IMG/VR virus record: IMGVR_UViG_3300028920_000023
Reading direction: 5' to 3' (one strand)
DNA: 64,000 bases
Origin: a virus
Lineage: Duplodnaviria > Caudoviricetes
Shown here: positions 13,377 to 62,456 of the stretch, one piece after another
How positions within the stretch are numbered: position 1 is the stretch's first letter
Layout of the letters: each line of letters begins with the position of its first letter
The notes under the pieces: model-generated
Database searches by the model: none
Told to the model about the DNA's origin: nothing
What the model saw: the letters and a program-made list of their open reading frames with translations, nothing else
Translations under genes and position numbers: made by a program

Positions 13377-13721
13377 TTATAACTGTCTAAGAGCAGAGTC
13401 CAACCTATCATCTAGACTTTGGGGTTTATAATTAATAGTCGCTAACGGTTTCTGATCTTTAATACTAAGAACTTGCTCGTTACAATTATCCTTGTTCCTC
13501 GACCATTCATGATTACAATCTGCACAGTGATTCGGTTCTTCTTTATTCCCAAGAAGAACATCTTCGGAATCACATTTTGGACATCTAATTTTATTCTCTA
13601 ATAGGTTCTTAGCGGAACTAATTCTAGCCGCAGTAGTATTAAGATTGCCTTTCTGGAGATGCAGAAGACCCTCTCTCAGGCATCGGATAGCGCTATTTAG
13701 TCTCTTTCTTGAAATATTCAT
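13377..13721 (-). CDS. hypothetical Zn-ribbon protein
   Basis: CPKC..CADC; GGAGG SD; CAAAAATA at 13736-13743. Confidence 0.65.
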   Translation of the reverse strand: MNISRKRLNSAIRCLREGLLHLQKGNLNTTAARISSAKNLLENKIRCPKCDSEDVLLGNKEEPNHCADCNHEWSRNKDNCNEQVLSIKDQKPLATINYKPQSLDDRLDSALRQL

Positions 13722-23033: not shown

Positions 23034-24195
23034 TATCCCACCTCTCATGATCAACAAACCTCATATCAACCCCAACATAAGCATCCTGATTAGAACCATC
23101 AGCATAAGCGCCATGGCCAAGCTCACCAGCGCCCCTATAATGACAATCCCTCATCATCTTAGGAACTACAACATCCAATCCCTTGCGTATAGCATTCACC
23201 GCACTATGAACAGCAACGCAAGCCGTCTTATCCCTTCTGCTCTCCGCAATCAATATCACAGCCTGGGCCATAATAATATCACACTCAGGCCTTCCGATTT
23301 CCTTGGCAGAAACATAAGCCGCATGCGCAACCGCAGTACAAATAGGATTAGAAAAAGCATCCTCAGCAGCAGAAACCATCAAGCGCCTAGCAATATACCT
23401 CGGATCCTCTCCGCTCTCCAACCATTTAGCCAACCAATAAATAGCAGAATCAGCATCACTAGCCTGGATACTCCCCTGGAAAGCAGAAGCCAAATCATAC
23501 TTCATATCCTTATTATGAATAACATACTTAAAAGGACATACGACCTTAGCAGTATCCAAATCAATATTATCACCAAGGCCCTCCGTGAAATTCGCAAGAG
23601 ACTCCAAAATTGTCAAGACCTTACGACCATCCCCACAAGCCATATGCACGATATGCAGGACAGCATCATCATCGAAAGACAAATCCCTCCCAGAAGACCT
23701 GATACTATCCAAACCAGAACTGAAAATCTCCAAAAGATCCCTAATAGACAAAGACTCAAACTCATAAACCGTACATCTAGAAACCAAAGCAGACTGAAGA
23801 TTCAAATAGGGATTCTCAGTAGTAGCACCAATCAATATCAGATGCCCATCCTCCACATAAGGAAGAAGAACATCTTGCTGATTCTTAGCCCAACGATGAA
23901 CCTCATCCACAAACAGAATGATCGTGCCATTCTTCTTGGCAGATTCCCCAACCTTACGTACAGCAGACACAGTAGCGCTAGTAGCATTCAGAGATACAAC
24001 CTCAATATCACTCATACTGCCTATGATATTAGCCAAGGTGGTCTTGCCGGTGCCAGCAGGCCCGTAGAAAAGCATCGAAGACAGATTATCTTCCTCAATA
24101 GCCTTCCTGAGGCGATTTATAATATGCTCCTGGCCGAAAAACTCATCAAGTTTCTTCGGTCTCATCATACTTGCTAATGGTCTTCTTACAGGCAT
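23017..24195 (-). CDS. rarA: replication-associated recombination AAA+ ATPase RarA/MgsA
   Basis: PLASMMRPKKLDEFFGQEH, FYGPAGTGKTTLA, ILFVDEVHRW, QQDVLLP, IGATTENPY, SAFQGSIQASD, GEDPRYIARRL. Confidence 0.93.
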   Translation of the reverse strand: MPVRRPLASMMRPKKLDEFFGQEHIINRLRKAIEEDNLSSMLFYGPAGTGKTTLANIIGSMSDIEVVSLNATSATVSAVRKVGESAKKNGTIILFVDEVHRWAKNQQDVLLPYVEDGHLILIGATTENPYLNLQSALVSRCTVYEFESLSIRDLLEIFSSGLDSIRSSGRDLSFDDDAVLHIVHMACGDGRKVLTILESLANFTEGLGDNIDLDTAKVVCPFKYVIHNKDMKYDLASAFQGSIQASDADSAIYWLAKWLESGEDPRYIARRLMVSAAEDAFSNPICTAVAHAAYVSAKEIGRPECDIIMAQAVILIAESRRDKTACVAVHSAVNAIRKGLDVVVPKMMRDCHYRGAGELGHGAYADGSNQDAYVGVDMRFVDHERWDNEQDS

Positions 24196-25039
24196 TCACC
24201 AACTCCCTATATGAATTCGTGTAATCGAAGTATCTGTCATCTTCTAATATCTGAGGACACTTCTCAACCAAATCCATAGCATCTTTAATTTCCACCTCAG
24301 CATAAATATCCAACTCAGGAGCGAATTGCATCCCCGGAAGCAAAAACGTCTTAGCAACCAAATTATCATCTTCTATCATGCAAGGACAATACCCAAAAAT
24401 CTTATCACCCAAAAGCAAAGGCACCCTGTGCACATCCCCAGAAGATGTAGGCTCACCCAAACCAATAAACCTAAGCAAAAAGCTAAAGACCGTCAACCGA
24501 GTAATACCCAAACATGGAGACATCCTCTCATACAACCTCTCCATAGCATGCGTAGAAAAACCAAAGCGGTACGTAATACCATCAACAACAATATCTTCCT
24601 CATAAATATTGCAATAGATCGAACCTGCCTTGCCATTCCGTTTCTTCGGAGTAACATGCTCAATGCGCATGCCATGGGAACTAACACTCACTATCGGAAT
24701 ATAAAAAGGAGGATCCGAATACAGACTCTGGGCTGCAGCCGTGAAGACATCATTCAGATTATACATCTCTTTTTTGGTCTGAACGCAACCAAAGCCATAT
24801 TTTCTGAATTCTCGGAGGATCTTCTCTTTTGGGTATAATTCGAAAGCCCTTTTGATGATGGCTTTCGCATCTCTCATTTTACTGAGTCTGGACCATGCCT
24901 TTCTATCGTTCTTATCAGGCATATACTCTGGCATCGAAGTATTGAATTCAAAATCTGGGTAGGATATTTTTTGGTTTTGTTTTTTCTTTCTCTCTTCTCT
25001 TTTCTTTCTCTTTCTTTGTTTTTTCTGTTCCTTATTCAT
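24146..25039 (-). CDS. hypothetical protein with basic N-terminus and HAMERLYER motif
   Basis: ATG at 25039 with GGGGA SD; FSTHAMERLYERM. Confidence 0.65.
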   Translation of the reverse strand: MNKEQKKQRKRKKREERKKKQNQKISYPDFEFNTSMPEYMPDKNDRKAWSRLSKMRDAKAIIKRAFELYPKEKILREFRKYGFGCVQTKKEMYNLNDVFTAAAQSLYSDPPFYIPIVSVSSHGMRIEHVTPKKRNGKAGSIYCNIYEEDIVVDGITYRFGFSTHAMERLYERMSPCLGITRLTVFSFLLRFIGLGEPTSSGDVHRVPLLLGDKIFGYCPCMIEDDNLVAKTFLLPGMQFAPELDIYAEVEIKDAMDLVEKCPQILEDDRYFDYTNSYRELVNACKKTISKYDETEET

Positions 25040-25046
25040 AAATACA

Positions 25047-25085
25047 CAATATCCCCTGAATACCATCTAGACAATTAGGATATTG
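25047..25085 (-). promoter_or_regulatory. hairpin overlapping the SD of the 25039 gene
   Basis: CAATATCC (25047-54)/GGATATTG (25078-85); no late motif in the loop. Confidence 0.45.
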
Positions 25086-39204: not shown

Positions 39205-51287
<12,083 letters not shown>

Positions 51288-52663: not shown

Positions 52664-52704
52664 CCTTTTTCTGTTATATCGCATAGATAAATAACAGAAA
52701 ATGG
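52664..52704. promoter_or_regulatory. divergent control region: 11-bp inverted repeat containing GATAAATA (+) and TTTCTG-N16-TATAAC (-)
   Basis: TTTTCTGTTAT (52667-77)/ATAACAGAAAA (52691-701). Confidence 0.6.
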
Positions 52705-52712
52705 GAATAATA

Positions 52713-53753
52713 ATGAAACTACCCAAGAAAATATTATTCACCAATTATCAAGCCCCTGGCGACGTTCTGGTACTCACAGCTACCATCAGAGACCTCCATA
52801 GAAAGTATCCAAACAAATATCTAACCGACGTAGACACCACAGCAATGCAGATCTGGGAAAACAACCCCCACATAACCAAACTGGACTGGACCAAAGAAAA
52901 CGAAACAATCAAAACACACGAAAATATCAAAATCATAAACTGTAAATACCCACTCATAGACCAATCCAACACCGCACCATACCACTTCCTACACGCATTT
53001 GCACAATACATCGAAACCAAACTCAGAATCAAAATACCCCTAACAGAAGCAAAAGGGGACATCCACCTATCCGAAGAAGAAAAGAACTGGATCTCACAAG
53101 CAAAAGAAAAAGGCATCGAGAACAACTTCTGGATCGTAATAGCAGGCGGAAAATATGACTTCACCGCAAAATGGTATCCACCAGAACGACACCAACATAT
53201 CATCAACTATTTCAAAGACAAAATAACATTCATACAATGTGGAGAAAGCCACGGACCGCCACTAGACCAAAACGGAAACAAAACAAACAACCACTTCCAC
53301 CCACAACTCAAAAACGTAGTAGATCTAAGAGGGCAAACAGATATACGACAATTCATACGACTAATGTACCACGCCTCCGGAGTCCTCTGCCCAGTCACTT
53401 TCGCAATGCATCTAGCGGCCGCCGTAGAGACCAAAACAGGACCAAAAAACAGACCCTGTGTCGTAATAGCAGGCGGAAGAGAACCAATGCAATGGGAAGC
53501 CTACCCACACCACCAATACATACACAAAAACGGCTGTCTCCCATGCTGCGAACAAGGCGGATGCTGGAAATCAAGATGCCAACTAATTGGCGATAAAGAC
53601 GAAAAAGACACCGAGAACGTCTGCGAAAACTACACACAAATAACACCAAACTTCAGAATACCAAGGTGTATGGACATGATCCACACCGGCGAAGTAATAC
53701 GTAGAATAGAATCATACTACGAGGGAGGAGCACTACGATATGATCAACACTGA
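52713..53753 (+). CDS. GT9 ADP-heptose:LPS heptosyltransferase-like protein
   Basis: QAPGDVLVLTATIRDLH, AGGKYDFTAKW, DLRGQTDIRQFIRLMYHA..VTFAMHLAAA. Confidence 0.82.
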   Translation: MKLPKKILFTNYQAPGDVLVLTATIRDLHRKYPNKYLTDVDTTAMQIWENNPHITKLDWTKENETIKTHENIKIINCKYPLIDQSNTAPYHFLHAFAQYIETKLRIKIPLTEAKGDIHLSEEEKNWISQAKEKGIENNFWIVIAGGKYDFTAKWYPPERHQHIINYFKDKITFIQCGESHGPPLDQNGNKTNNHFHPQLKNVVDLRGQTDIRQFIRLMYHASGVLCPVTFAMHLAAAVETKTGPKNRPCVVIAGGREPMQWEAYPHHQYIHKNGCLPCCEQGGCWKSRCQLIGDKDEKDTENVCENYTQITPNFRIPRCMDMIHTGEVIRRIESYYEGGALRYDQH

Positions 53754-54165
53754 AGAATTATACAAAAAACTGTCCAGCAATGACCCAATAATCAAATCAA
53801 AAGCTGTAGAAGAATTCAAAAACCTCAGCATAAGAGAAAGGAACATATTCATCGCAGAAGTAGACGGAGGACTAACCAAAATATCCGAGCTAATCGCTGA
53901 ACGAAAACCACCAGACACAAGCAACATACAATTGAAAAAACAGAGAATCGTCAAAAGACGCCAACCACCACCCCCACCAACAGTAGAAAAGACCATAGAG
54001 AGAGGCACTTTCTATAAGTTCCTAAAGAGCAAACAATGGGAACCTACAATAAATAATTGCTCTAAACATCCCAAAGATCTCGCCTTAGTCATAGAACAAA
54101 AAACACAATTCTGCTTAGGATGCGCAGTAGAAGCCAACAAACTCTGGAAAGAAATGAACCAATAA
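53740..54165 (+). CDS. hypothetical basic/Pro-rich protein with a C-terminal Cys cluster
   Basis: RQPPPPPT; CSKH..FCLGC; coupled in the operon. Confidence 0.6.
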   Translation: MINTEELYKKLSSNDPIIKSKAVEEFKNLSIRERNIFIAEVDGGLTKISELIAERKPPDTSNIQLKKQRIVKRRQPPPPPTVEKTIERGTFYKFLKSKQWEPTINNCSKHPKDLALVIEQKTQFCLGCAVEANKLWKEMNQ

Positions 54166-55256
54166 TGCACATCGGAATATTCTCAAAATTAGGCGCAGCT
54201 GGAGGATCGGAACACAGATGCGCAGAAATGGCCAACTCGATAGTACGATACACAGGACATACCGTAACCCTATTATGCGAAAAAGAATTAAACGAAAGAA
54301 TAAAGAACCTGCTAGACAACAAAGTCAACATAGCACTCCACGTCCTAGGAGAATACGGACACAACCGAAACCTCCTACACGAAGTAGACTCCCTACTAAT
54401 AGTAAACAGCGACAGCTACTCATTCAGTAAACCAGAATACTGGCATGGCAAAGCCATGAACAAAGACAAACCACACCACACCTTCGACATAGACCCAGCC
54501 AAAATCCGACAGATGGTCTTCCTATACAACTTCGTAGTAAGCCCAGCACAAAATCTCAAAAAATTATACCAAGAATGTCCAGATGTAAGAATCATATGCG
54601 CCAACAAACGTTTCTTCGATGAAATAAGCACCAAAGACAAATTCAAAGGAATGAGACACCTACCAAGAACAACACTAGACTCTCCCATATGCCCACAAAG
54701 CGTATCGACAGCCAAATACCCATCGGAACAAATCAGAATAGGCAAACATTCCCTAGCACATGGATATAAATTCAACAAAGAACACCAAAAATTAATCGAG
54801 AGGATAAACGAAAAGTATAGTCATAAGGTCATCTGGGACTTCATGGGAGTGCCAAAAGACCGCATTAAAGAATTATCCAGAATACCAAACGTCATAATTC
54901 GTGAAGCATTCTCAAAATCTGTAAAAGAATACCTAATGGGTATAGATATCTTTCTCTTTTTCATAGATTGGGGAAGAACAGAACCATGGTCTAGGGCAGT
55001 AGCAGAGGCCATGATGAGCGGCACACCAGTAATAGCCACAGACAAAGCCGGCAATAGAGACCAAGTCATCAGCGGGAATAACGGGTTCCTATGCAACACC
55101 GTAGACCAAATGTTCGACAGTATAAGCTTTTTAATAGAAAACCCAGAAATACGCAAAACCATGGGTCTAAACAACCACATCTATTCCCAGAGATTCACAA
55201 GCCAAAAAATAATCAACAACTACCTAGACTTCATAACCACCAAAAAACATACATAA
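54165..55256 (+). CDS. GT4 (group 1) glycosyltransferase
   Basis: GAAGGSEHRC; IDIFLF..EPWSRAVAEAMMSGTPVIATDKAGNRDQV..NGFLC. Confidence 0.85.
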   Translation: MHIGIFSKLGAAGGSEHRCAEMANSIVRYTGHTVTLLCEKELNERIKNLLDNKVNIALHVLGEYGHNRNLLHEVDSLLIVNSDSYSFSKPEYWHGKAMNKDKPHHTFDIDPAKIRQMVFLYNFVVSPAQNLKKLYQECPDVRIICANKRFFDEISTKDKFKGMRHLPRTTLDSPICPQSVSTAKYPSEQIRIGKHSLAHGYKFNKEHQKLIERINEKYSHKVIWDFMGVPKDRIKELSRIPNVIIREAFSKSVKEYLMGIDIFLFFIDWGRTEPWSRAVAEAMMSGTPVIATDKAGNRDQVISGNNGFLCNTVDQMFDSISFLIENPEIRKTMGLNNHIYSQRFTSQKIINNYLDFITTKKHT

Positions 55257-56011
55257 TCACCGCATGCGGAGAAAAACACACCGCACGAATCAACCCATGT
55301 ATACAAGCACTCAAAAAATACACCACAGCCGATATCATAATAATCACCTCAAGATCAACCCAACATATCAACCACGACCAAATAATTCGACATACAATCC
55401 CGGACAAATATGACGATGCACAAGCCAGTAGAATCCTAAAAACCGGAATACAGAAAATCATATCACTAACAGAAACATACTGCTATATGGATACAGACAT
55501 ATTCGCAGTAGACCAGGAAGCAGACGAAATATTCACACACAGAAAAGGAATCATAAACTTCGCCAAAGACCCAGGAAAAACAGTCAAAAAATTCTCCAAA
55601 TATGCCACCAAAATACCCCTAACACAAGCAATAAAAGAAAAATTCAACCTAGATATACCAGAAAAATGGCAAATATGGAACGGAGGACTATTCCTATTTG
55701 ACAAACACTCAATACCATTCCTCAATACCTGGCACCAATTCACCCTAGACACATTCCAAGACCCCATCTGGAAAACAAGAGACCAAGGAGCACTAATAGC
55801 AGCAGTATGGAAACACGGACTACAAAACAACGACACAATACCCAGAGAATACAACTGGCTACATAAACTACAAAGCGGACTAAAAAACCTACCAAACGGA
55901 TTCAGAACCAAAAAAGGCCAAAAAATCAAATTCCTACACTTCCCAGTATCCTATGGAGACACCAAATCAGAAACCTGGAATAATCTACAAAAAATACTTA
56001 ATCAAGCCTAA
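55091..56011 (+). CDS. GT8-like glycosyltransferase; the domain begins at ~55247 without a nearby start codon
   Basis: CYMDTDIF (DxD), WNGGLFLF, DQGAL, YNW, FLHF. Confidence 0.7.
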   Translation: MQHRRPNVRQYKLFNRKPRNTQNHGSKQPHLFPEIHKPKNNQQLPRLHNHQKTYIITACGEKHTARINPCIQALKKYTTADIIIITSRSTQHINHDQIIRHTIPDKYDDAQASRILKTGIQKIISLTETYCYMDTDIFAVDQEADEIFTHRKGIINFAKDPGKTVKKFSKYATKIPLTQAIKEKFNLDIPEKWQIWNGGLFLFDKHSIPFLNTWHQFTLDTFQDPIWKTRDQGALIAAVWKHGLQNNDTIPREYNWLHKLQSGLKNLPNGFRTKKGQKIKFLHFPVSYGDTKSETWNNLQKILNQA

Positions 56012-56879
56012 TATTTCATGCCATGTACATATATTCATGATCACATTATACCACAATCTTAAAAATGACGGATGGCATGTCAGATTATTCAGCGAGATAC
56101 TCGGCTTAGTTGAAACATCCAAAGAAATAATTACGCCTACTCTCAAGATCGGCGAAGACATAATAAAGATCAAGAGATTTGTAATTTTTCAGAAAGACGA
56201 AGAATATTATATAATAGAATTCCAAGATCAAGTCAATCCAAAGAAATTATCAGTTAGACACTTCATAAAAAATGAAGCTATCAAGATCGTGCTCAAATGC
56301 ATGTATCGAGATAACTTATATCAATGGGACAAAATCAGACCATTCTTGTACTTTGAAAAAGACCCACATATTTGGCAGAAGCACCTAGGATACCTCAGAT
56401 CAGGCCCAAGGAATGTACCAAAATTATACTTCCGTGGTACCTCGGGATTTGGAAATAGGAAAAACGTCCTCAAAAAATTAAGAATACTAAACCCAAGCCA
56501 AAAGAAAATAGGACTAAACCAATACATAGAAGAATGTAGACAACATATTATGGCCTTATCCCTGCCAGGAGTAGCCAATACCTGTCATAGAGAAATAGAA
56601 ATGTTCGGGGCCGGAATCCCGGTCCTAATGCCCAGACAAAAAACCGCATTCTACGACCCACTAATACCAAATTACCATTACATCTCAGTAGATGTTGACG
56701 CCAAACAGGACGCTACTGACACAATCGTATCTAAAATAACCAAAAGATTTTTGGAAACATATAAAAACGAGGCCTTGCTGCACGACATCAGAAAAAACGC
56801 TCTGGAATGGTACGATAGGAATATACTAGTTGGGAACAGAAGCAAAATAACTTTACGATTACTGGGTTTAAATGGATAA
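55953..56879 (+). CDS. GT-B (exostosin/GT47- or GT90-like) glycosyltransferase, start uncertain
   Basis: LYFRGT..NRK; YIEE..ALSLPGVANTCHREIEMFGAGIPVL. Confidence 0.65.
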   Translation: METPNQKPGIIYKKYLIKPNISCHVHIFMITLYHNLKNDGWHVRLFSEILGLVETSKEIITPTLKIGEDIIKIKRFVIFQKDEEYYIIEFQDQVNPKKLSVRHFIKNEAIKIVLKCMYRDNLYQWDKIRPFLYFEKDPHIWQKHLGYLRSGPRNVPKLYFRGTSGFGNRKNVLKKLRILNPSQKKIGLNQYIEECRQHIMALSLPGVANTCHREIEMFGAGIPVLMPRQKTAFYDPLIPNYHYISVDVDAKQDATDTIVSKITKRFLETYKNEALLHDIRKNALEWYDRNILVGNRSKITLRLLGLNG

Positions 56880-58245
56880 ATTCAGAAGAAAACTCCAAAT
56901 ATTACAACATAAAAAACAGGGGGCACCACTTCCGCCAACCAAAAAAGAATATATACCACCAGTACAACAGCAGCTGAGCATTTCCTTATGCTGCACATGT
57001 AAGGGAAGAAAAGAACAACTAGGATATACGGTACCTAGCAATCTTGAGATCATCAAAGATGACCAAGATATAGAATATATCCTGTTAGATTATGATAGCC
57101 CAGATAACCTCAAAGAGTTCGCCCAGAGATATCCACAACTGAAATATTATAGAATAAATGATAGACCATACTTCCACCATAGCGAAGCCAAAAATTTTGC
57201 ACATGCGCAGGCATCAAATGCAATTGTAATTAATATAGATTCCGAGACATATTTCACTAAAAAATTCATTGATAAAGTAAGAACAGAATTCACTAAGAAT
57301 ATAAACATTATATTACATTGCGACCGCCATGGGGTTATCGCGTTAAGCAGAGAAAACTTCCAGAAACTAAATGGATATGATACAAGATTCATAGGATGGG
57401 GCTCAGAGGATAATGATTTAGTCAACAGAGCCAGGAATCTAGGATTAAGACATAAAAAATTAAGAGGAAAAGAATATACCAGCTACCATGATCACAAAGA
57501 CAAAGTAAGAAACAGATTCACCATAATACCAAAACACCTTTCCTATCCGGCAAACAAAGAAATCCTTAAACAAAACGAAAGAAATAAAATAACAAGAGTA
57601 GAAAATAAACCAATATTCAGAAACAATAACCCAATGAGGTTCGTAATCGTTGTAGGCCTACCAAGATCCGGAACCAGCTGCGTAGCAGGGACCATCGAAA
57701 AACTTGGTATAGCTTTCAGCCCAAGCATGTATGGACCCAAACAAAACAACCAAAAAGGATTCTACGAGTGCGTAGTTCTGGCCAATGTTTGCCATAGGTG
57801 CGTAGCACAACCAAGTTTGGAATATAGAGTAAGTATCGAAAGCCGCAAAAAGAACTTGTTAGAATTGTATAAGTATTATAGATTCGGTATCGATAATAAC
57901 AGGACAGTGGGTATGAAGCATCCTCTTCTTACGATGATGCTCCCGGAAGCTGAGTATATCTTCGGGAATATCATATGGGTTAATGTGATAAGGCCGCTGG
58001 ATAAGATCAAACAGTCAGCTATCAGCGTGGGTTATTTTGGGAGCAAATCAGAGACTATAGCTATGCTGGATAATATGAATGCGGAACGGAATCACCAGAT
58101 GGATAAGAGGGAACATTTGGATGTATATTATGAGAGGTTGTTGCGGAGGCCAGAAGAGGAAATAGAGCGTATTGCTAATTATCTTGGAACAAATATGAAT
58201 ATGAGAGCGTTAGAATTTGTGGATGATAAATTAAGGCATTTCTAA
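56872..58245 (+). CDS. GT2/GT7C glycosyltransferase fused to a sulfotransferase domain
   Basis: NIDSE..LNGYDTRFIGWGSEDNDL; VVGLPRSGTS..KGFYE..MKHP..YYERLL..ERIANYLG. Confidence 0.85.
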   Translation: MDKFRRKLQILQHKKQGAPLPPTKKEYIPPVQQQLSISLCCTCKGRKEQLGYTVPSNLEIIKDDQDIEYILLDYDSPDNLKEFAQRYPQLKYYRINDRPYFHHSEAKNFAHAQASNAIVINIDSETYFTKKFIDKVRTEFTKNINIILHCDRHGVIALSRENFQKLNGYDTRFIGWGSEDNDLVNRARNLGLRHKKLRGKEYTSYHDHKDKVRNRFTIIPKHLSYPANKEILKQNERNKITRVENKPIFRNNNPMRFVIVVGLPRSGTSCVAGTIEKLGIAFSPSMYGPKQNNQKGFYECVVLANVCHRCVAQPSLEYRVSIESRKKNLLELYKYYRFGIDNNRTVGMKHPLLTMMLPEAEYIFGNIIWVNVIRPLDKIKQSAISVGYFGSKSETIAMLDNMNAERNHQMDKREHLDVYYERLLRRPEEEIERIANYLGTNMNMRALEFVDDKLRHF

Positions 58246-58964
58246 TGATTAGCTTCTGCACCACTTGTATGAACAGAACATGTCATTTGGCTAGGACTTT
58301 ACCGATCAATTTGGTAAACACAAGAGATTGTGATGTGGAGTTTGTTGTTTTAAATTATGGCAGCAGGGATGATTTGGATCATTTTATGGGGATGTTTTAT
58401 CATTTAATAATGACTTCTAGAGTCAGGTATTTCAAGACACAACAGGATGTCTTCCGGATGAGTCATGCTAAGAATGTTGTGCACAAGTTGGGCGATGGAG
58501 ATATTTTGTGCAATTTGGATGCGGATTGTATTATTGATGAGAATTTCGTTAAGGAGGTCAAGGAACGTGTGCTGGGCTCTGTGGTTAGGGGATGGTATGG
58601 TGGTCTTATTGCGATAGAGAAGAAGAATTTTATGGAATTGAGGGGATATGATGAGAGATTTAGGGGATGGGGTCGAGAGGATGATGATTTTGTTAACAGA
58701 GCTGGGCGTCTGGGGTTAGAGTTCGTGAGGTTAAATAGGGATGTTTATAAACAGATTAAGCATAAGCCTGATGATTCTAACCTGGATATGAAGGCTGAGG
58801 AATCTATTCCTCTAAACAGTGAATTGATGCATAATAATACTAAGCTAGGTATTATTACGGTCAATCAAGTTTCTTTTGGGGAGTGTATGATTGAATCTGG
58901 TAAAGTTGAGTTGACGAAGCCAAACAGTATGGTAAGGAGAGCTGTATCTAGATTCTCTAAATAA
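58245..58964 (+). CDS. GT2/GT7C glycosyltransferase
   Basis: ISFCTTCMNR, CNLDAD, LRGYDERFRGWGREDDDF. Confidence 0.85.
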   Translation: MISFCTTCMNRTCHLARTLPINLVNTRDCDVEFVVLNYGSRDDLDHFMGMFYHLIMTSRVRYFKTQQDVFRMSHAKNVVHKLGDGDILCNLDADCIIDENFVKEVKERVLGSVVRGWYGGLIAIEKKNFMELRGYDERFRGWGREDDDFVNRAGRLGLEFVRLNRDVYKQIKHKPDDSNLDMKAEESIPLNSELMHNNTKLGIITVNQVSFGECMIESGKVELTKPNSMVRRAVSRFSK

Positions 58965-58971
58965 AGTCTGA

Positions 58972-59000
58972 CCTCCCAAACATAATATGGACAAGGGAGG
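58972..59000 (+). promoter_or_regulatory. anti-SD/SD hairpin with CAAACATA
   Basis: CCTCCC/GGGAGG 6-bp stem; motif at 58977-58984, 21 nt before the ATG. Confidence 0.65.
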
Positions 59001-59005
59001 ACAAG

Positions 59006-59791
59006 ATGAAACAGAAAAATGTGGTTACCCTCTACAGAGAGACATGGAATCTGGGCGATGCAGTACAGACTCTAGCTTTGTCTAGGCTGATTGATGTCCA
59101 TGCTGGGATTTTCCGTGGAGAGAAGATTTATCTTGCCAATGATTATCTACATGTGAATAATGGTTATATCAGCGAGAAAGATTTTATTCCGCATCATGAT
59201 GCTTTGTTTGCTGGTGTGCATATTGATGTCTCATCTGGCGATGATAATATTTTGGTGTGGTTAGAGAATTCTTCTAGGCCTATTGGATCTAGGGACCCTT
59301 GGACGCATGAATATTTGTTGAAGAAGGGGATAAATTCTGAACTTGTTGGATGCGCGACAGTCACTTTCCCTACAATCGGTATGTGCGGTAAGGATGTTAT
59401 TAATGTTGAAAGCAGTTTGGAATTGGATGGTTGTATTAAGATGGACCATTTGATCCATAGGGAGATGTCGTGGGGTATGCAGTGGAATAGGGCTCAGAGT
59501 TATGTTACTAGGTATTCTATGGCGAAGTTTGTTGCGACATGTCGTTTGCATGTGGCGTTGGTTTGTATTGCGTATGGTATCCCGTTCTTTGTAGATAGGC
59601 CTAGGAATGAGAGTATGGAGAGAAGATTTAGTATTTTGTCTGAGATGGGTGTAAGATTTGGTGAAATCAATCAAATTTCTAATGAGGTTGTTGATGAGTG
59701 GAGGTTGAGGTATAAGGGGTTTTTGGAGAGGTTTGTTGATGTTGAGGAACATTCGCCAGGATTTGTTAAGCCGATATGGGATGTGGTCTGA
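59006..59791 (+). CDS. polysaccharide pyruvyltransferase-like protein
   Basis: NLGDAVQ, IGSRDPWT..VGCAT, VATCRLHVAL..AYGIP. Confidence 0.8.
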   Translation: MKQKNVVTLYRETWNLGDAVQTLALSRLIDVHAGIFRGEKIYLANDYLHVNNGYISEKDFIPHHDALFAGVHIDVSSGDDNILVWLENSSRPIGSRDPWTHEYLLKKGINSELVGCATVTFPTIGMCGKDVINVESSLELDGCIKMDHLIHREMSWGMQWNRAQSYVTRYSMAKFVATCRLHVALVCIAYGIPFFVDRPRNESMERRFSILSEMGVRFGEINQISNEVVDEWRLRYKGFLERFVDVEEHSPGFVKPIWDVV

Positions 59792-60300
59792 GGATTGTTT
59801 CTCCGTATTTTGATTTTACCCCTCCGGTTTTAGTGGAGAAGCAGAGGGAGGTTTTCGAGCGTTTTGATCTTCCTTTAGAACAGTGCAGAACGCGTGCTTC
59901 CGAGGGGAGCTTTTTGGATGAGGTAGTTCGTTCTGATTTTTCTTTGTTATTGTATTTCAGTCCTTATTGTGTTCCGTTGTTTGGTGATTTTATTAGGGTG
60001 GTTTGTTGTTTGGATCCGTTTGAGCGGTTGGTTGGTTTAAGGAGTCCTGGGTTTGGTGAGTGGGTTGTTGGTGGTTTTTTCGCTTTGAGTAGGGATGTTT
60101 ATGAGAGAGCTGGTCGTCCTTCGTTTTTGCCTTATGGTGGTGGTGTTTTGGGTCAGAGATTAATCAGAGGTTGTAGGGTAAATAGGATTGATGTCAGGTT
60201 TTTGGTGGATGATCAGTTGGTTTATCGTGGTGTGGTGAATGGTTTTAGGAGAAGGTGCGATAGGATTCTTTCTGAGGTTCCTGTATTGAGTTATGGATAA
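59776..60300 (+). CDS. degenerate GT-A-like protein
   Basis: GEWVVGGFFALSRDVYERAGRPSF; start uncertain. Confidence 0.5.
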   Translation: MGCGLRIVSPYFDFTPPVLVEKQREVFERFDLPLEQCRTRASEGSFLDEVVRSDFSLLLYFSPYCVPLFGDFIRVVCCLDPFERLVGLRSPGFGEWVVGGFFALSRDVYERAGRPSFLPYGGGVLGQRLIRGCRVNRIDVRFLVDDQLVYRGVVNGFRRRCDRILSEVPVLSYG

Positions 60301-60973
60301 ATTTCGGATTAGATTAAAGAATCGTGTTAAACCTAGAAAAATTAATAAGCATAATTCTGATAAATTATTTCTAAGGAATGTTACACTTATATGTATTGAT
60401 TGTGTGAATATTGTTGGGGCGTTACGTAGTCTTGCGATATGCTTACATTATTGCGATTTTCAAGATATCAAGTTTTTAACATCGGAAAATATGAACTTTA
60501 GATATAGGGTAGAGATACCTAAAATTCACAGCAAAAGAGAATATTCGTTTTTTGTTGTTAGAGAATTATACAAGTATGTCGATACTAGCCATTTACTCAT
60601 TGTACAACACGATGGATGGATTTGTAATCCCAAGGCATGGGATGATGAGTGGTACAAATATGATTATATTGGATCGAATGTTACGTGGATGGATAATAAA
60701 GGAGGGAATGGCGGTTTTTCTTTTAGGTCTAAAAGGTTATTAGAATATGGTTTGAATATTATTCCGGAGGGGAAAGAACATCCGGAAGATGCTGCGTACT
60801 CGTCTGTAAAGAAAAAGAATACTGGATTTAGGAAACAATTTGAAGATGCTGGTTTAAGATTTGCGGATAGGGAATTACAAGCAAAATTCGGATGTAAGAA
60901 TAGGAAGAAATGGGAAGGTTCTTTCGGCCATCATACGTCTAAATTGGATGATTGGAGAAATCCAATTGGATAA
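60293..60973 (+). CDS. DUF5672-like glycosyltransferase
   Basis: LLIVQHDGWICNPKAWDDEWYKYDYIG..GGNGGFSFRSK..PED. Confidence 0.8.
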   Translation: MDKFRIRLKNRVKPRKINKHNSDKLFLRNVTLICIDCVNIVGALRSLAICLHYCDFQDIKFLTSENMNFRYRVEIPKIHSKREYSFFVVRELYKYVDTSHLLIVQHDGWICNPKAWDDEWYKYDYIGSNVTWMDNKGGNGGFSFRSKRLLEYGLNIIPEGKEHPEDAAYSSVKKKNTGFRKQFEDAGLRFADRELQAKFGCKNRKKWEGSFGHHTSKLDDWRNPIG

Positions 60974-62456
60974 ATTCAGAAAAAGACTTATAAATCGTAT
61001 AAAACCAAAGAAAACTAATAAAATTGAGATACGAAATAAGGCAAATAAGATTATATCCCGTAATCATCTAGGAGGACATGAGAACATAACACATATAGAT
61101 GAAGCTGTCCTAGATTATTTAATAAGGCGATTTAGACCACATTCTTTTTTGGACGTCGGTTGCGGTCCAGGCGGCATGGTTTCTATAGCTAAATCAAGAG
61201 GATTATATTCAAAAGGAATAGATGGAGATGATAATATCAAATTTGAAGATTTGATATTGCATGATTTTCAAAATGGAAAAATAGACATCAAAAGAAAATT
61301 CGATATAATTTGGTCCACTGAATTTTTGGAACATATACCCGAGGAACTATTAGGAAACGTATTTTATACTCTAAAGAATTGTAGTAAAGAAGGAACAATT
61401 TTAATTATAACTGCGGCCCCGCCAAAATCAAAAGGACATTATCACGTTAATTTACAGAATTCAGATTATTGGATAGAAGTTTTCGAATCCAATGGATTTC
61501 AATATAGTAAGAGTCTCACTACATCAATACGAAGGTTATCTTCTATGAGACGCGAATTTATGAGAAAAACAGGTCTAGTATTTCAATTCAGGAGTAAATC
61601 AGAGAATAAAAAATCAGAACATCAAAAAACAAAAAAGATATGCTTTTATAGTTATTATGGCGGAGGCAAAAGACACGCAGAATTACTTAGGAAATATTAT
61701 GAATGTCGAAATTCAGAATTTTCAATAATAAAGCCTTGTAGTAAATGGTGTGAAGACGTATTTTCGGTAGTTACAGATATAATTTCGTCAGATATTATTT
61801 TCATCTGGAATGGGCAGGATCCGGGGTGTGATTGGATCAAATCTGTTTGCAAAGCTCATAACATCAAATATTTATACGCAGAATTGGGTCTTCTACCTCA
61901 GAAGAATAACTGGCATATCGACCCAAACGGTATAATCGGAAAGTCCTCTTTATGCAAAGAACTCAGTTGGGTTGATGACGAAATGATAAGAAAATACGAA
62001 CAATATAAGGAAACCTATATTCGAAAAAATAAATTATATTATAATCCTGGTGAATATATCTTGATTCCTTTACAATTGGAATTCGATAGTGCATTCTATC
62101 TCTATTCTGGTTATGCAAGAATATCTGATTTTATAGCGGATATGGAATCAAAATATGACAAAATCATCATCAGCCCACATCCTGTTAGGAAAGATATCAG
62201 ATTATATCCCAAAAAAGCTAAAATAATCAGAGATACCCCAACAATTAAGCTAGCTTTGAAATCAAAACAGGTAATAGGTCTGACCTCTACTATATTATAC
62301 GAGACATCCATGTTGGGCATCCCAACAGAAGCCATAGGGGATTGTCCTATGAAATACCATAAAGATGATCAAATACGTCTATTAGCAGCAGTATACCACA
62401 GACAAATACCAGAAGAAACAACAGATTTAACTAGATGGATAAACGATTTACTTTAG
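60966..62456 (+). CDS. SAM methyltransferase fused to a capsule-synthesis (KpsS-like) domain
   Basis: TTG start at 60966 with GGAG SD; FLDVGCGPG, FDIIWSTEFLEH; IFIWNG, YAELG, IPLQL, SPHP, TSTILYETSMLGIP. Confidence 0.78.
   Translation: MDKFRKRLINRIKPKKTNKIEIRNKANKIISRNHLGGHENITHIDEAVLDYLIRRFRPHSFLDVGCGPGGMVSIAKSRGLYSKGIDGDDNIKFEDLILHDFQNGKIDIKRKFDIIWSTEFLEHIPEELLGNVFYTLKNCSKEGTILIITAAPPKSKGHYHVNLQNSDYWIEVFESNGFQYSKSLTTSIRRLSSMRREFMRKTGLVFQFRSKSENKKSEHQKTKKICFYSYYGGGKRHAELLRKYYECRNSEFSIIKPCSKWCEDVFSVVTDIISSDIIFIWNGQDPGCDWIKSVCKAHNIKYLYAELGLLPQKNNWHIDPNGIIGKSSLCKELSWVDDEMIRKYEQYKETYIRKNKLYYNPGEYILIPLQLEFDSAFYLYSGYARISDFIADMESKYDKIIISPHPVRKDIRLYPKKAKIIRDTPTIKLALKSKQVIGLTSTILYETSMLGIPTEAIGDCPMKYHKDDQIRLLAAVYHRQIPEETTDLTRWINDLL

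Follow-up and report, generated by a model that had tools for sequence, protein, structure and literature searches.

A basic N-terminal leader shared by three unrelated glycan enzymes of an uncultured phage

The IMG/VR record IMGVR_UViG_3300028920_000023, of which we analyzed a stretch of 64,000 nucleotides (the window; part of a 354,787-bp contig from an uncultured phage), encodes three glycan enzymes that carry unrelated catalytic domains but begin with the same short, basic peptide. This leader, M-D-K-F-R-x-(R/K)-L followed by a basic tract, is a real, selected, and genome-specific N-terminal tag, and it is seen in a single genome only, in three copies. We tentatively read it, with low confidence, as a lineage-specific docking (address) tag gathering the three tailoring enzymes at one site.

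Results

Three Glycan Enzymes Open with the Same Peptide

The N-termini were found where the initial annotation had reported them, the open reading frames (ORFs) at 56872, 60293, and 60966 each opening with the motif and a basic tract. The genes and their leaders are listed below, with lengths in amino acids (aa) and Pfam matches in parentheses.

56872..58245, plus strand: enzyme 1, 457 aa, GT2/Glyco_transf_7C glycosyltransferase (GT) joined to a sulfotransferase (PF02709, 4.5e-14; PF00535, 2.4e-7; PF13469, 5.9e-8)
60293..60973, plus strand: enzyme 2, 226 aa, DUF5672, GT-A-like fold (PF18922, 1.3e-14)
60966..62456, plus strand: enzyme 3, 496 aa, class I methyltransferase with a C-terminal domain (PF13489, 3.1e-8)
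56872..56979, plus strand: leader 1, 36 aa, basic head M-D-K-F-R-R-K-L (residues 1-15) and then a Pro-rich linker, net charge +6
60293..60364, plus strand: leader 2, about 24 aa, its likeness to leader 3 reaching residue 29, net charge +9 over 29 aa
60966..61064, plus strand: leader 3, 33 aa, TTG start, net charge +11

Conserved in all leaders are M1, D2, K3, F4, R5, (R/K)7, L8, and a hydrophobic residue at position 11/12, and leaders 2 and 3 additionally share N10, R11, K13, P14, and K16. BLASTP aligned residues 1-29 of leader 2 with residues 1-33 of leader 3 (17/33 identical, E 7e-6). Leader 1 is identical to leader 3 at six of the first eight residues and then diverges into its Pro-rich linker. 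The leader itself was the sole significant pairwise BLASTP match among the three proteins, and their Pfam domains differ, in agreement with the earlier description of the catalytic bodies as unrelated. At the DNA level, the core TGGATAAATTYMGR, allowing at most one mismatch, occurs at exactly three sites in the window, 56873, 60294, and 60967, which correspond to the three starts; shuffles contained 0.25 sites on average and reached three in 0 of 100 cases. A six-frame scan of the window found D-K-F-R four times, at the three N-termini and in one internal chance match within an adenosine-deaminase-like gene.

All three leaders start inside the end of the upstream gene:

56872..56879, plus strand: start/stop overlap ATGGATAA, 8 nt, with the upstream ORF 55953..56879
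60293..60300, plus strand: start/stop overlap ATGGATAA, 8 nt, with the upstream ORF 59776..60300
60966..60973, plus strand: start/stop overlap TTGGATAA, 8 nt, with the upstream ORF 60293..60973
60954..60957, plus strand: Shine-Dalgarno (SD) sequence GGAG, 8 nt before TTG 60966

The overlap with the upstream stop, (A/T)TGGATAA, is thus the same 8 nt at every start. For enzyme 3, the public gene call (P0022, 502 aa) begins at an in-frame ATG at 60948, adding six residues, whereas the initial annotation had chosen the TTG at 60966. We favor the TTG because of its SD sequence, the homology that begins at exactly that codon, and the 8-nt overlap matching those of the other two genes; with either start, the motif lies at most seven residues from the N-terminus. 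Genes 53740 and 59006 of the same operon have GGAGG-type ribosome sites. A frameshift fusion of 60293 and 60966 was rejected, as GGA-TAA lacks a slippery context.

The uniform overlap could mean that the A/T-rich start lying over a stop is itself the conserved element, serving termination-reinitiation coupling or favorable early codons, with the peptide as a by-product. Besides the identity of the overlap, the first 10 nt are invariant, silent sites included, and local hairpins involve the start or the SD sequence. Only at 60293 is the hairpin significant, the RNA of 60253-60342 (plus strand) around this start forming a structure of -24.3 kcal/mol (z -3.4, 0/200 shuffles) with the AUG within the stem; nothing significant was found at the other two junctions, and no RNA structure is conserved among the three. 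The invariance of the first 10 nt arises partly because the upstream TAA stop sits in codons 2-3 (GA-TAA-A), which alone accounts for three invariant silent bases. Conservation moreover extends 16-30 codons further downstream, where F, R, L, P, and K codons differ silently, and other coupled genes of the operon have overlaps of 1, 14, and 16 nt without the peptide. We consider an explanation at the level of translation improbable.

A faint likeness to the leader start was noticed at the other end of enzyme 1, whose C-terminus reads D-D-K-L-R-H-F: the DNA at 58222-58236 (GAT GAT AAA TTA AGG) equals the leader start at 11 of 15 bases and directly precedes a leaderless GT7C paralogue at 58245. 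This may be chance or a decayed junction.

The Leader Precedes Otherwise Familiar Domains

Alignments with homologues and a paralogue support the view, already put forward from the sequence, that the peptide is separable and sits ahead of unrelated domains, and they indicate that the leader is an extra piece of 24-36 residues. Of 20 DUF5672 homologues (36-63% identity), which start opposite about residue 22-27 of enzyme 2, not one carries the basic extension, the closest of them (P0002, 63% identity) having a different N-terminus; at 80 DUF5672 loci from IMG/VR, matches run mostly from about residue 24-30 on, a few starting at residues 2-16. In enzyme 3, the methyltransferase domain opens with an H-L-G-G-H motif at residue 34, and in P0023, P0025, and P0026 this motif is preceded by other N-terminal domains and the leader is absent. 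In enzyme 1, residue 37, where the GT domain starts, corresponds to residue 2 of the leaderless neighboring paralogue 58245, and the alignment to the best phage match, which also lacks the leader, begins at query residue 37 as well. Matches to Pfam, NCBIfam, and PHROGs begin beyond the leader, and no described family covers it. The initial annotation had held that absence of the leader from homologues in related phages would speak against the idea. The nearest homologues do lack it, but they do not come from related phages, and their lack of a leader therefore shows lineage specificity and not a lack of function.

The AlphaFold2 (AF2) model of enzyme 2 has a confident body with a GT-A-like fold (predicted local distance difference test, pLDDT, 83.5), for which Foldseek returned EXT/EXTL2, CHSY3, B3GalT6, the PBCV-1 capsid glycosyltransferase, and GtrB, with TM values of 0.4-0.54. 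DUF5672 is very common on viral contigs, with at least 568 IMG/VR stretches. The C-domain of enzyme 3 has a sub-threshold resemblance to Capsule_synth (KpsS/KpsC; PF05159, E 0.025, 14.5 bits against a cut-off of 20); a sequence search of the PDB gave no match for it, and its AF2 model has a pLDDT of 56. In the metagenomic homologue P0023, the methyltransferase and KpsS/KpsC-like domains are apparently in reverse order relative to enzyme 3, as judged by eye, only the methyltransferase part aligning, and in P0025 the same methyltransferase domain is combined with PF04488. From its sequence contexts, the methyltransferase domain looks like a mobile tailoring module.

Selection Has Acted on the Peptide

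The initial annotation had placed the conservation at the protein level, citing codon differences (TTC AGA versus TTT CGG) that proved correct. Nei-Gojobori counts support this: between leaders 2 and 3 (60293 and 60966), the proportion of differences was 0.88 at silent sites (pS) and 0.25 at replacement sites (pN), and 0.87 and 0.16, respectively, within the first 19 codons. The silent changes include multi-step ones (CGG/AGA, TTA/CTT). With silent sites nearly saturated and replacement sites little changed, selection acts on the peptide. The local base composition leads to a similar view. Third codon positions, read on the plus strand, have 57-91% A+C in 28 of the 33 window genes regardless of gene direction, whereas a patch of reversed skew at 58245-60973, sharp-edged and lying within a single operon, has 15-37% in four consecutive plus-strand genes (GT7C, pyruvyltransferase, 174-aa ORF, and DUF5672). 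The third-position A+C of leaders 1-3 (0.71, 0.32, and 0.50) tracks in each case the local skew of its own gene, which means that the peptide has persisted under strong mutation pressures of opposite direction. We also considered whether the G+T-rich island at 58245-60973 had recently been inverted or imported, an idea that was not maintained.

These patterns bear on the suggestion that the leader is a functionless relic, the remnant of a single ancestral 5' segment that duplication or recombination distributed during modular assembly of the operon. The operon is a compositional mosaic, the apparent swap of domain order between enzyme 3 and P0023 suggests shuffling, and leader 1 has already diverged past residue 8. 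On the other hand, leaders 2 and 3 have a pN much lower than their pS, all three copies have retained their start and reading frame, and a useless extension of 24-36 aa would be expected to decay under a strong mutation bias. A relic is thus a poor candidate.

A Strongly Basic, Possibly Flexible Leader without a Hydrophobic Core

The leaders contain 8-13 Lys and Arg in 29-36 aa, giving net charges of +6 to +11. None has the hydrophobic core or transmembrane segment that would be expected of a Sec/Tat signal peptide or a Golgi-type type II anchor; they lead straight into a linker, either polar or Pro-rich, that precedes the catalytic domain. In the AF2 models, residues 1-24 of leader 2 are coil, with pLDDT below 50 over residues 1-18, and leader 3 forms a low-confidence helix at residues 2-12 (pLDDT about 46) and continues as coil, also at low confidence, as far as residue 45. 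These low-confidence models suggest that the leader may be flexible.

The main rival to a docking tag is a peripheral membrane tether, in which the cationic N-terminus, its first turn weakly amphipathic, would bind anionic phospholipids and keep the enzymes at the inner membrane, the site of lipid-linked glycan assembly. KpsS/KpsC capsule enzymes work at the membrane, and chain-terminating or capsule enzymes of bacteria (WbdD, KpsS/KpsC) and N-terminal helices such as that of MreB are precedents for such tethering. WbdD, which terminates O-antigen chains, and KpsS-type enzymes also resemble the tagged proteins in being chain-end tailoring enzymes, and the MreB N-terminus, the MinD and FtsA C-termini, and PmtA resemble them in joining a short basic, partly hydrophobic terminal peptide to a soluble catalytic body. 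PmtA, reported to have a basic N-terminal amphipathic helix, is a further precedent (PMC5312082). The high positive charge of the leaders, their conserved hydrophobic stripe at positions 1, 4, 8, and 11/12, the modeled helix of leader 3, and the weak Capsule_synth likeness of enzyme 3 would all fit a tether. The amphipathicity appears weak, however: the hydrophobic moment (0.30-0.59) is equaled by 17-50% of shuffles of the same residues and so is not above them, and the mean hydrophobicity is very low (-0.4 to -0.8). Pro14 cuts the helix short in leaders 2 and 3, leader 2 is modeled as coil, the invariant Asp2 is unexpected for lipid binding, and direct cytoplasmic O-glycosylation of a Gly-x-Thr fiber, such as the one encoded next to the operon, requires no membrane step. 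We consider a membrane role unlikely, if still worth serious attention.

Basic composition and Lys/Arg clusters in a short peptide are also features of molecular sleds and arginine-rich motifs, and the leaders, which contain K-P-x-K and K-R clusters, resemble in composition basic peptides with the ability to bind DNA and slide along it (PMC4740752, PMC4797294). A nucleic-acid-binding tail of this kind could tether the enzymes to the DNA or RNA of the phage, for instance so that they are packaged with it or act on DNA. The enzyme domains, however, are of polysaccharide and glycoprotein types and are encoded beside a fiber gene, no DNA-modification signature was found, and the conserved non-basic residues D2, F4, and L8 are unnecessary for sliding. 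We regard such a tail as very unlikely.

An address peptide on otherwise unrelated proteins of one phage recalls the capsid targeting sequence (CTS) of T4, which is likewise short, N-terminal, and common to proteins such as IPI-III and Alt. A T4-type sequence would direct the enzymes into the prohead or onto the particle before being cleaved off. The T4 CTS has a prohead-protease site at its end, and its cargo consists of small virion proteins whose genes lie close to those of the head, whereas the leader is strongly basic, is followed by a linker, and heads glycan enzymes encoded in a glycan operon and not in a head block. We found no common Glu-containing site of the type (L/I)-x-E in the leaders: leader 2 has no Glu, and the Glu residues of leaders 1 and 3 occur only in K-K-E and K-I-E contexts at non-aligned positions. 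The putative head-type leaders in the window (5026 and 7549) are acidic, of M-E-x-x-E-K type, and unlike the tag. Targeting to the capsid seems highly improbable.

Searches for Further Copies

A profile of the three leaders searched against 1.84 billion representative proteins, and a word search with residues 1-40 against 5.8 billion proteins, each retrieved only the query's own protein. A tblastn search of GenBank phages with the leader gave no match, and the ESM Atlas yielded none above 0.78. A strict back-translated DNA pattern had no matches in IMG/VR, 241 million metagenome records, and GTDB genomes; a relaxed pattern had six matches in the same collections, none an N-terminal leader, as they lay inside longer frames or headed ORFs of 5-32 codons. 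The 80 IMG/VR DUF5672 loci (1.33 Mb) had no MDKFR-like start, and shared N-termini among them occurred only between full-length paralogues and never between unrelated neighbors.

Within the window, a possible fourth copy was considered at 13377-13721 (minus strand), where a protein begins M-N-I-S-R-K-R-L-N-S-A-I-R, 6 of 13 residues being identical to leader 3. The likeness was judged to be chance because the helix there runs on into the protein body. The protein itself, of 114 aa and with a strong SD sequence, carries a CxxC...CxxC zinc ribbon and adjoins a second glycan cluster (epimerase, GT10-like, and GT2). The window's only N-terminus as basic as those of leaders 2 and 3 belongs to the ORF at 24146-25066 (minus strand), which is K/R-rich with a charge of +11 in its first 30 residues and unrelated to the leaders in sequence.

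Genomic Setting

The tagged genes sit in a glycan operon on the plus strand, 52701-62456, of about 11 genes. Its first part encodes, in order, a GT9-like protein, a 141-aa protein, a GT4, an ORF with a faint Stealth_CR2 likeness, and a 308-aa ORF; the second part encodes the GT2/GT7C enzyme with sulfotransferase, a second GT7C-type transferase, a pyruvyltransferase, a 174-aa ORF, the DUF5672 protein, and the methyltransferase with its C-domain. The Stealth_CR2 likeness, in the ORF at 55256-56011 (plus strand) between the GT4 and the 308-aa ORF, has an E of 0.031, far under the cut-off; the start of this ORF is ambiguous, the longest form beginning at 55091, inside the GT4 gene. The operon proteins at 53740, 55953, and 59776 carry no domain of known type. 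On the opposite strand, the operon adjoins a GDP-mannose dehydratase, the adenosine-deaminase-like gene, and a 3696-aa Gly-x-Thr collagen-like protein:

39205..50295, minus strand: collagen-like fiber protein, 3696 aa, candidate docking target, 783 G-x-T triplets, net charge -119, pI (isoelectric point) 4.05

The fiber protein contains 920 Thr, and its acidity is clustered in periodic segments; its acidic module is roughly 110 aa long and is flanked by G-A-D repeats. Its charge contrasts with that of the three tagged enzymes, which are basic overall (pI 9.2-9.5).

Genes in the window overlap tightly and have GGAG-type ribosome sites, and phage features include a Tail_P2_I baseplate domain in a 1761-aa protein, a ThyX, and an AAA ATPase. 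Searches of GenBank phages gave no match to the operon (blastn) or to a 574-aa window protein whose function is unassigned (tblastn), and IMG/VR scans with enzymes 1 and 2 found no relative of the phage or of its operon.

Discussion

Since selection has kept the peptide, we read it as a probable address or docking tag. The initial annotation had proposed addressing or docking to the virion, a scaffold, DNA, or a membrane, which we consider a reasonable inference; docking as such, and the docking partner, we infer. That D2, K3, F4, and R5 are strictly conserved points to specific recognition more than to bulk charge, and an invariant head that suggests recognition, together with a flexible basic tract that suits a tether, leads us to favor a docking tag. 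Under this hypothesis, the tag would have been grafted onto three tailoring enzymes of a fiber-glycan operon. The head M-D-K-F-R-x-(R/K)-L, with hydrophobic residues at 1, 4, 8, and 11/12, would act as a short linear recognition motif, possibly a helix of one to three turns, and the flexible Lys/Arg-rich tract (+6 to +11) would supply electrostatic affinity and reach. The GT-sulfotransferase, the DUF5672 transferase, and the methyltransferase/KpsS-like enzyme would in this way be brought to one common site, most likely the nascent acidic collagen-like fiber or a glycosylation assembly on it.

Several observations weigh against docking. With three copies in one genome and no relatives found, the proposal has no comparative support, and the patchy strand skew may inflate the silent divergence, so that the copies may be younger than pS implies. 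Seven or eight other enzymes of the operon do without the tag, and leader 1 shares only eight residues. The analysis brought out no partner, and the small neighboring protein 53740 is itself basic (pI 9.47). The low pLDDT of the leaders, in turn, may stem from missing alignment depth over the leader and not from flexibility.

Shared terminal address peptides are an already known idea in phage proteins, and the present tag is a variant of it on glycan enzymes. Outside phages, short N-terminal exosporium-targeting motifs shared by the collagen-like glycoproteins BclA, BclB, and BetA of Bacillus direct these proteins to one surface layer bearing collagen fibers, and the Gly-Pro-Thr collagen of the exosporium is paired with adjacent glycan genes. 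That motif differs from the leader in sitting on structural proteins and not on modifying enzymes, and the two have no sequence similarity. The adenovirus pVIc peptide, a molecular sled, is likewise short and cationic, and it keeps its enzyme on a linear polyanion so that the substrate is reached by one-dimensional search (PMC4740752, PMC4797294). It binds DNA, however, and joins the protease after release from a precursor, whereas the leader is encoded on each enzyme and its polyanion is only putative. By analogy, the leader could be a cationic sled with which chain-end enzymes (for sulfation, methylation, and capping sugars) scan along the polyanionic 3696-residue fiber and decorate its approximately 780 Gly-x-Thr sites processively. 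We regard this as a long shot; if true, it would be a protein-filament counterpart of the adenovirus sled on DNA and the first targeting code described for the virion-glycosylation machinery of a phage.

Three copies in a single uncultured genome make the docking tag a well-defined hypothesis and not yet a system. To our knowledge, very little is known of how phages and giant viruses organize the cytoplasmic glycosylation of their fibers. The tag offers a handy experimental handle on this question and, if our reading of it as a docking tag is true, bringing tailoring enzymes together at one site by means of a short transferable peptide would be a simple organizing principle.

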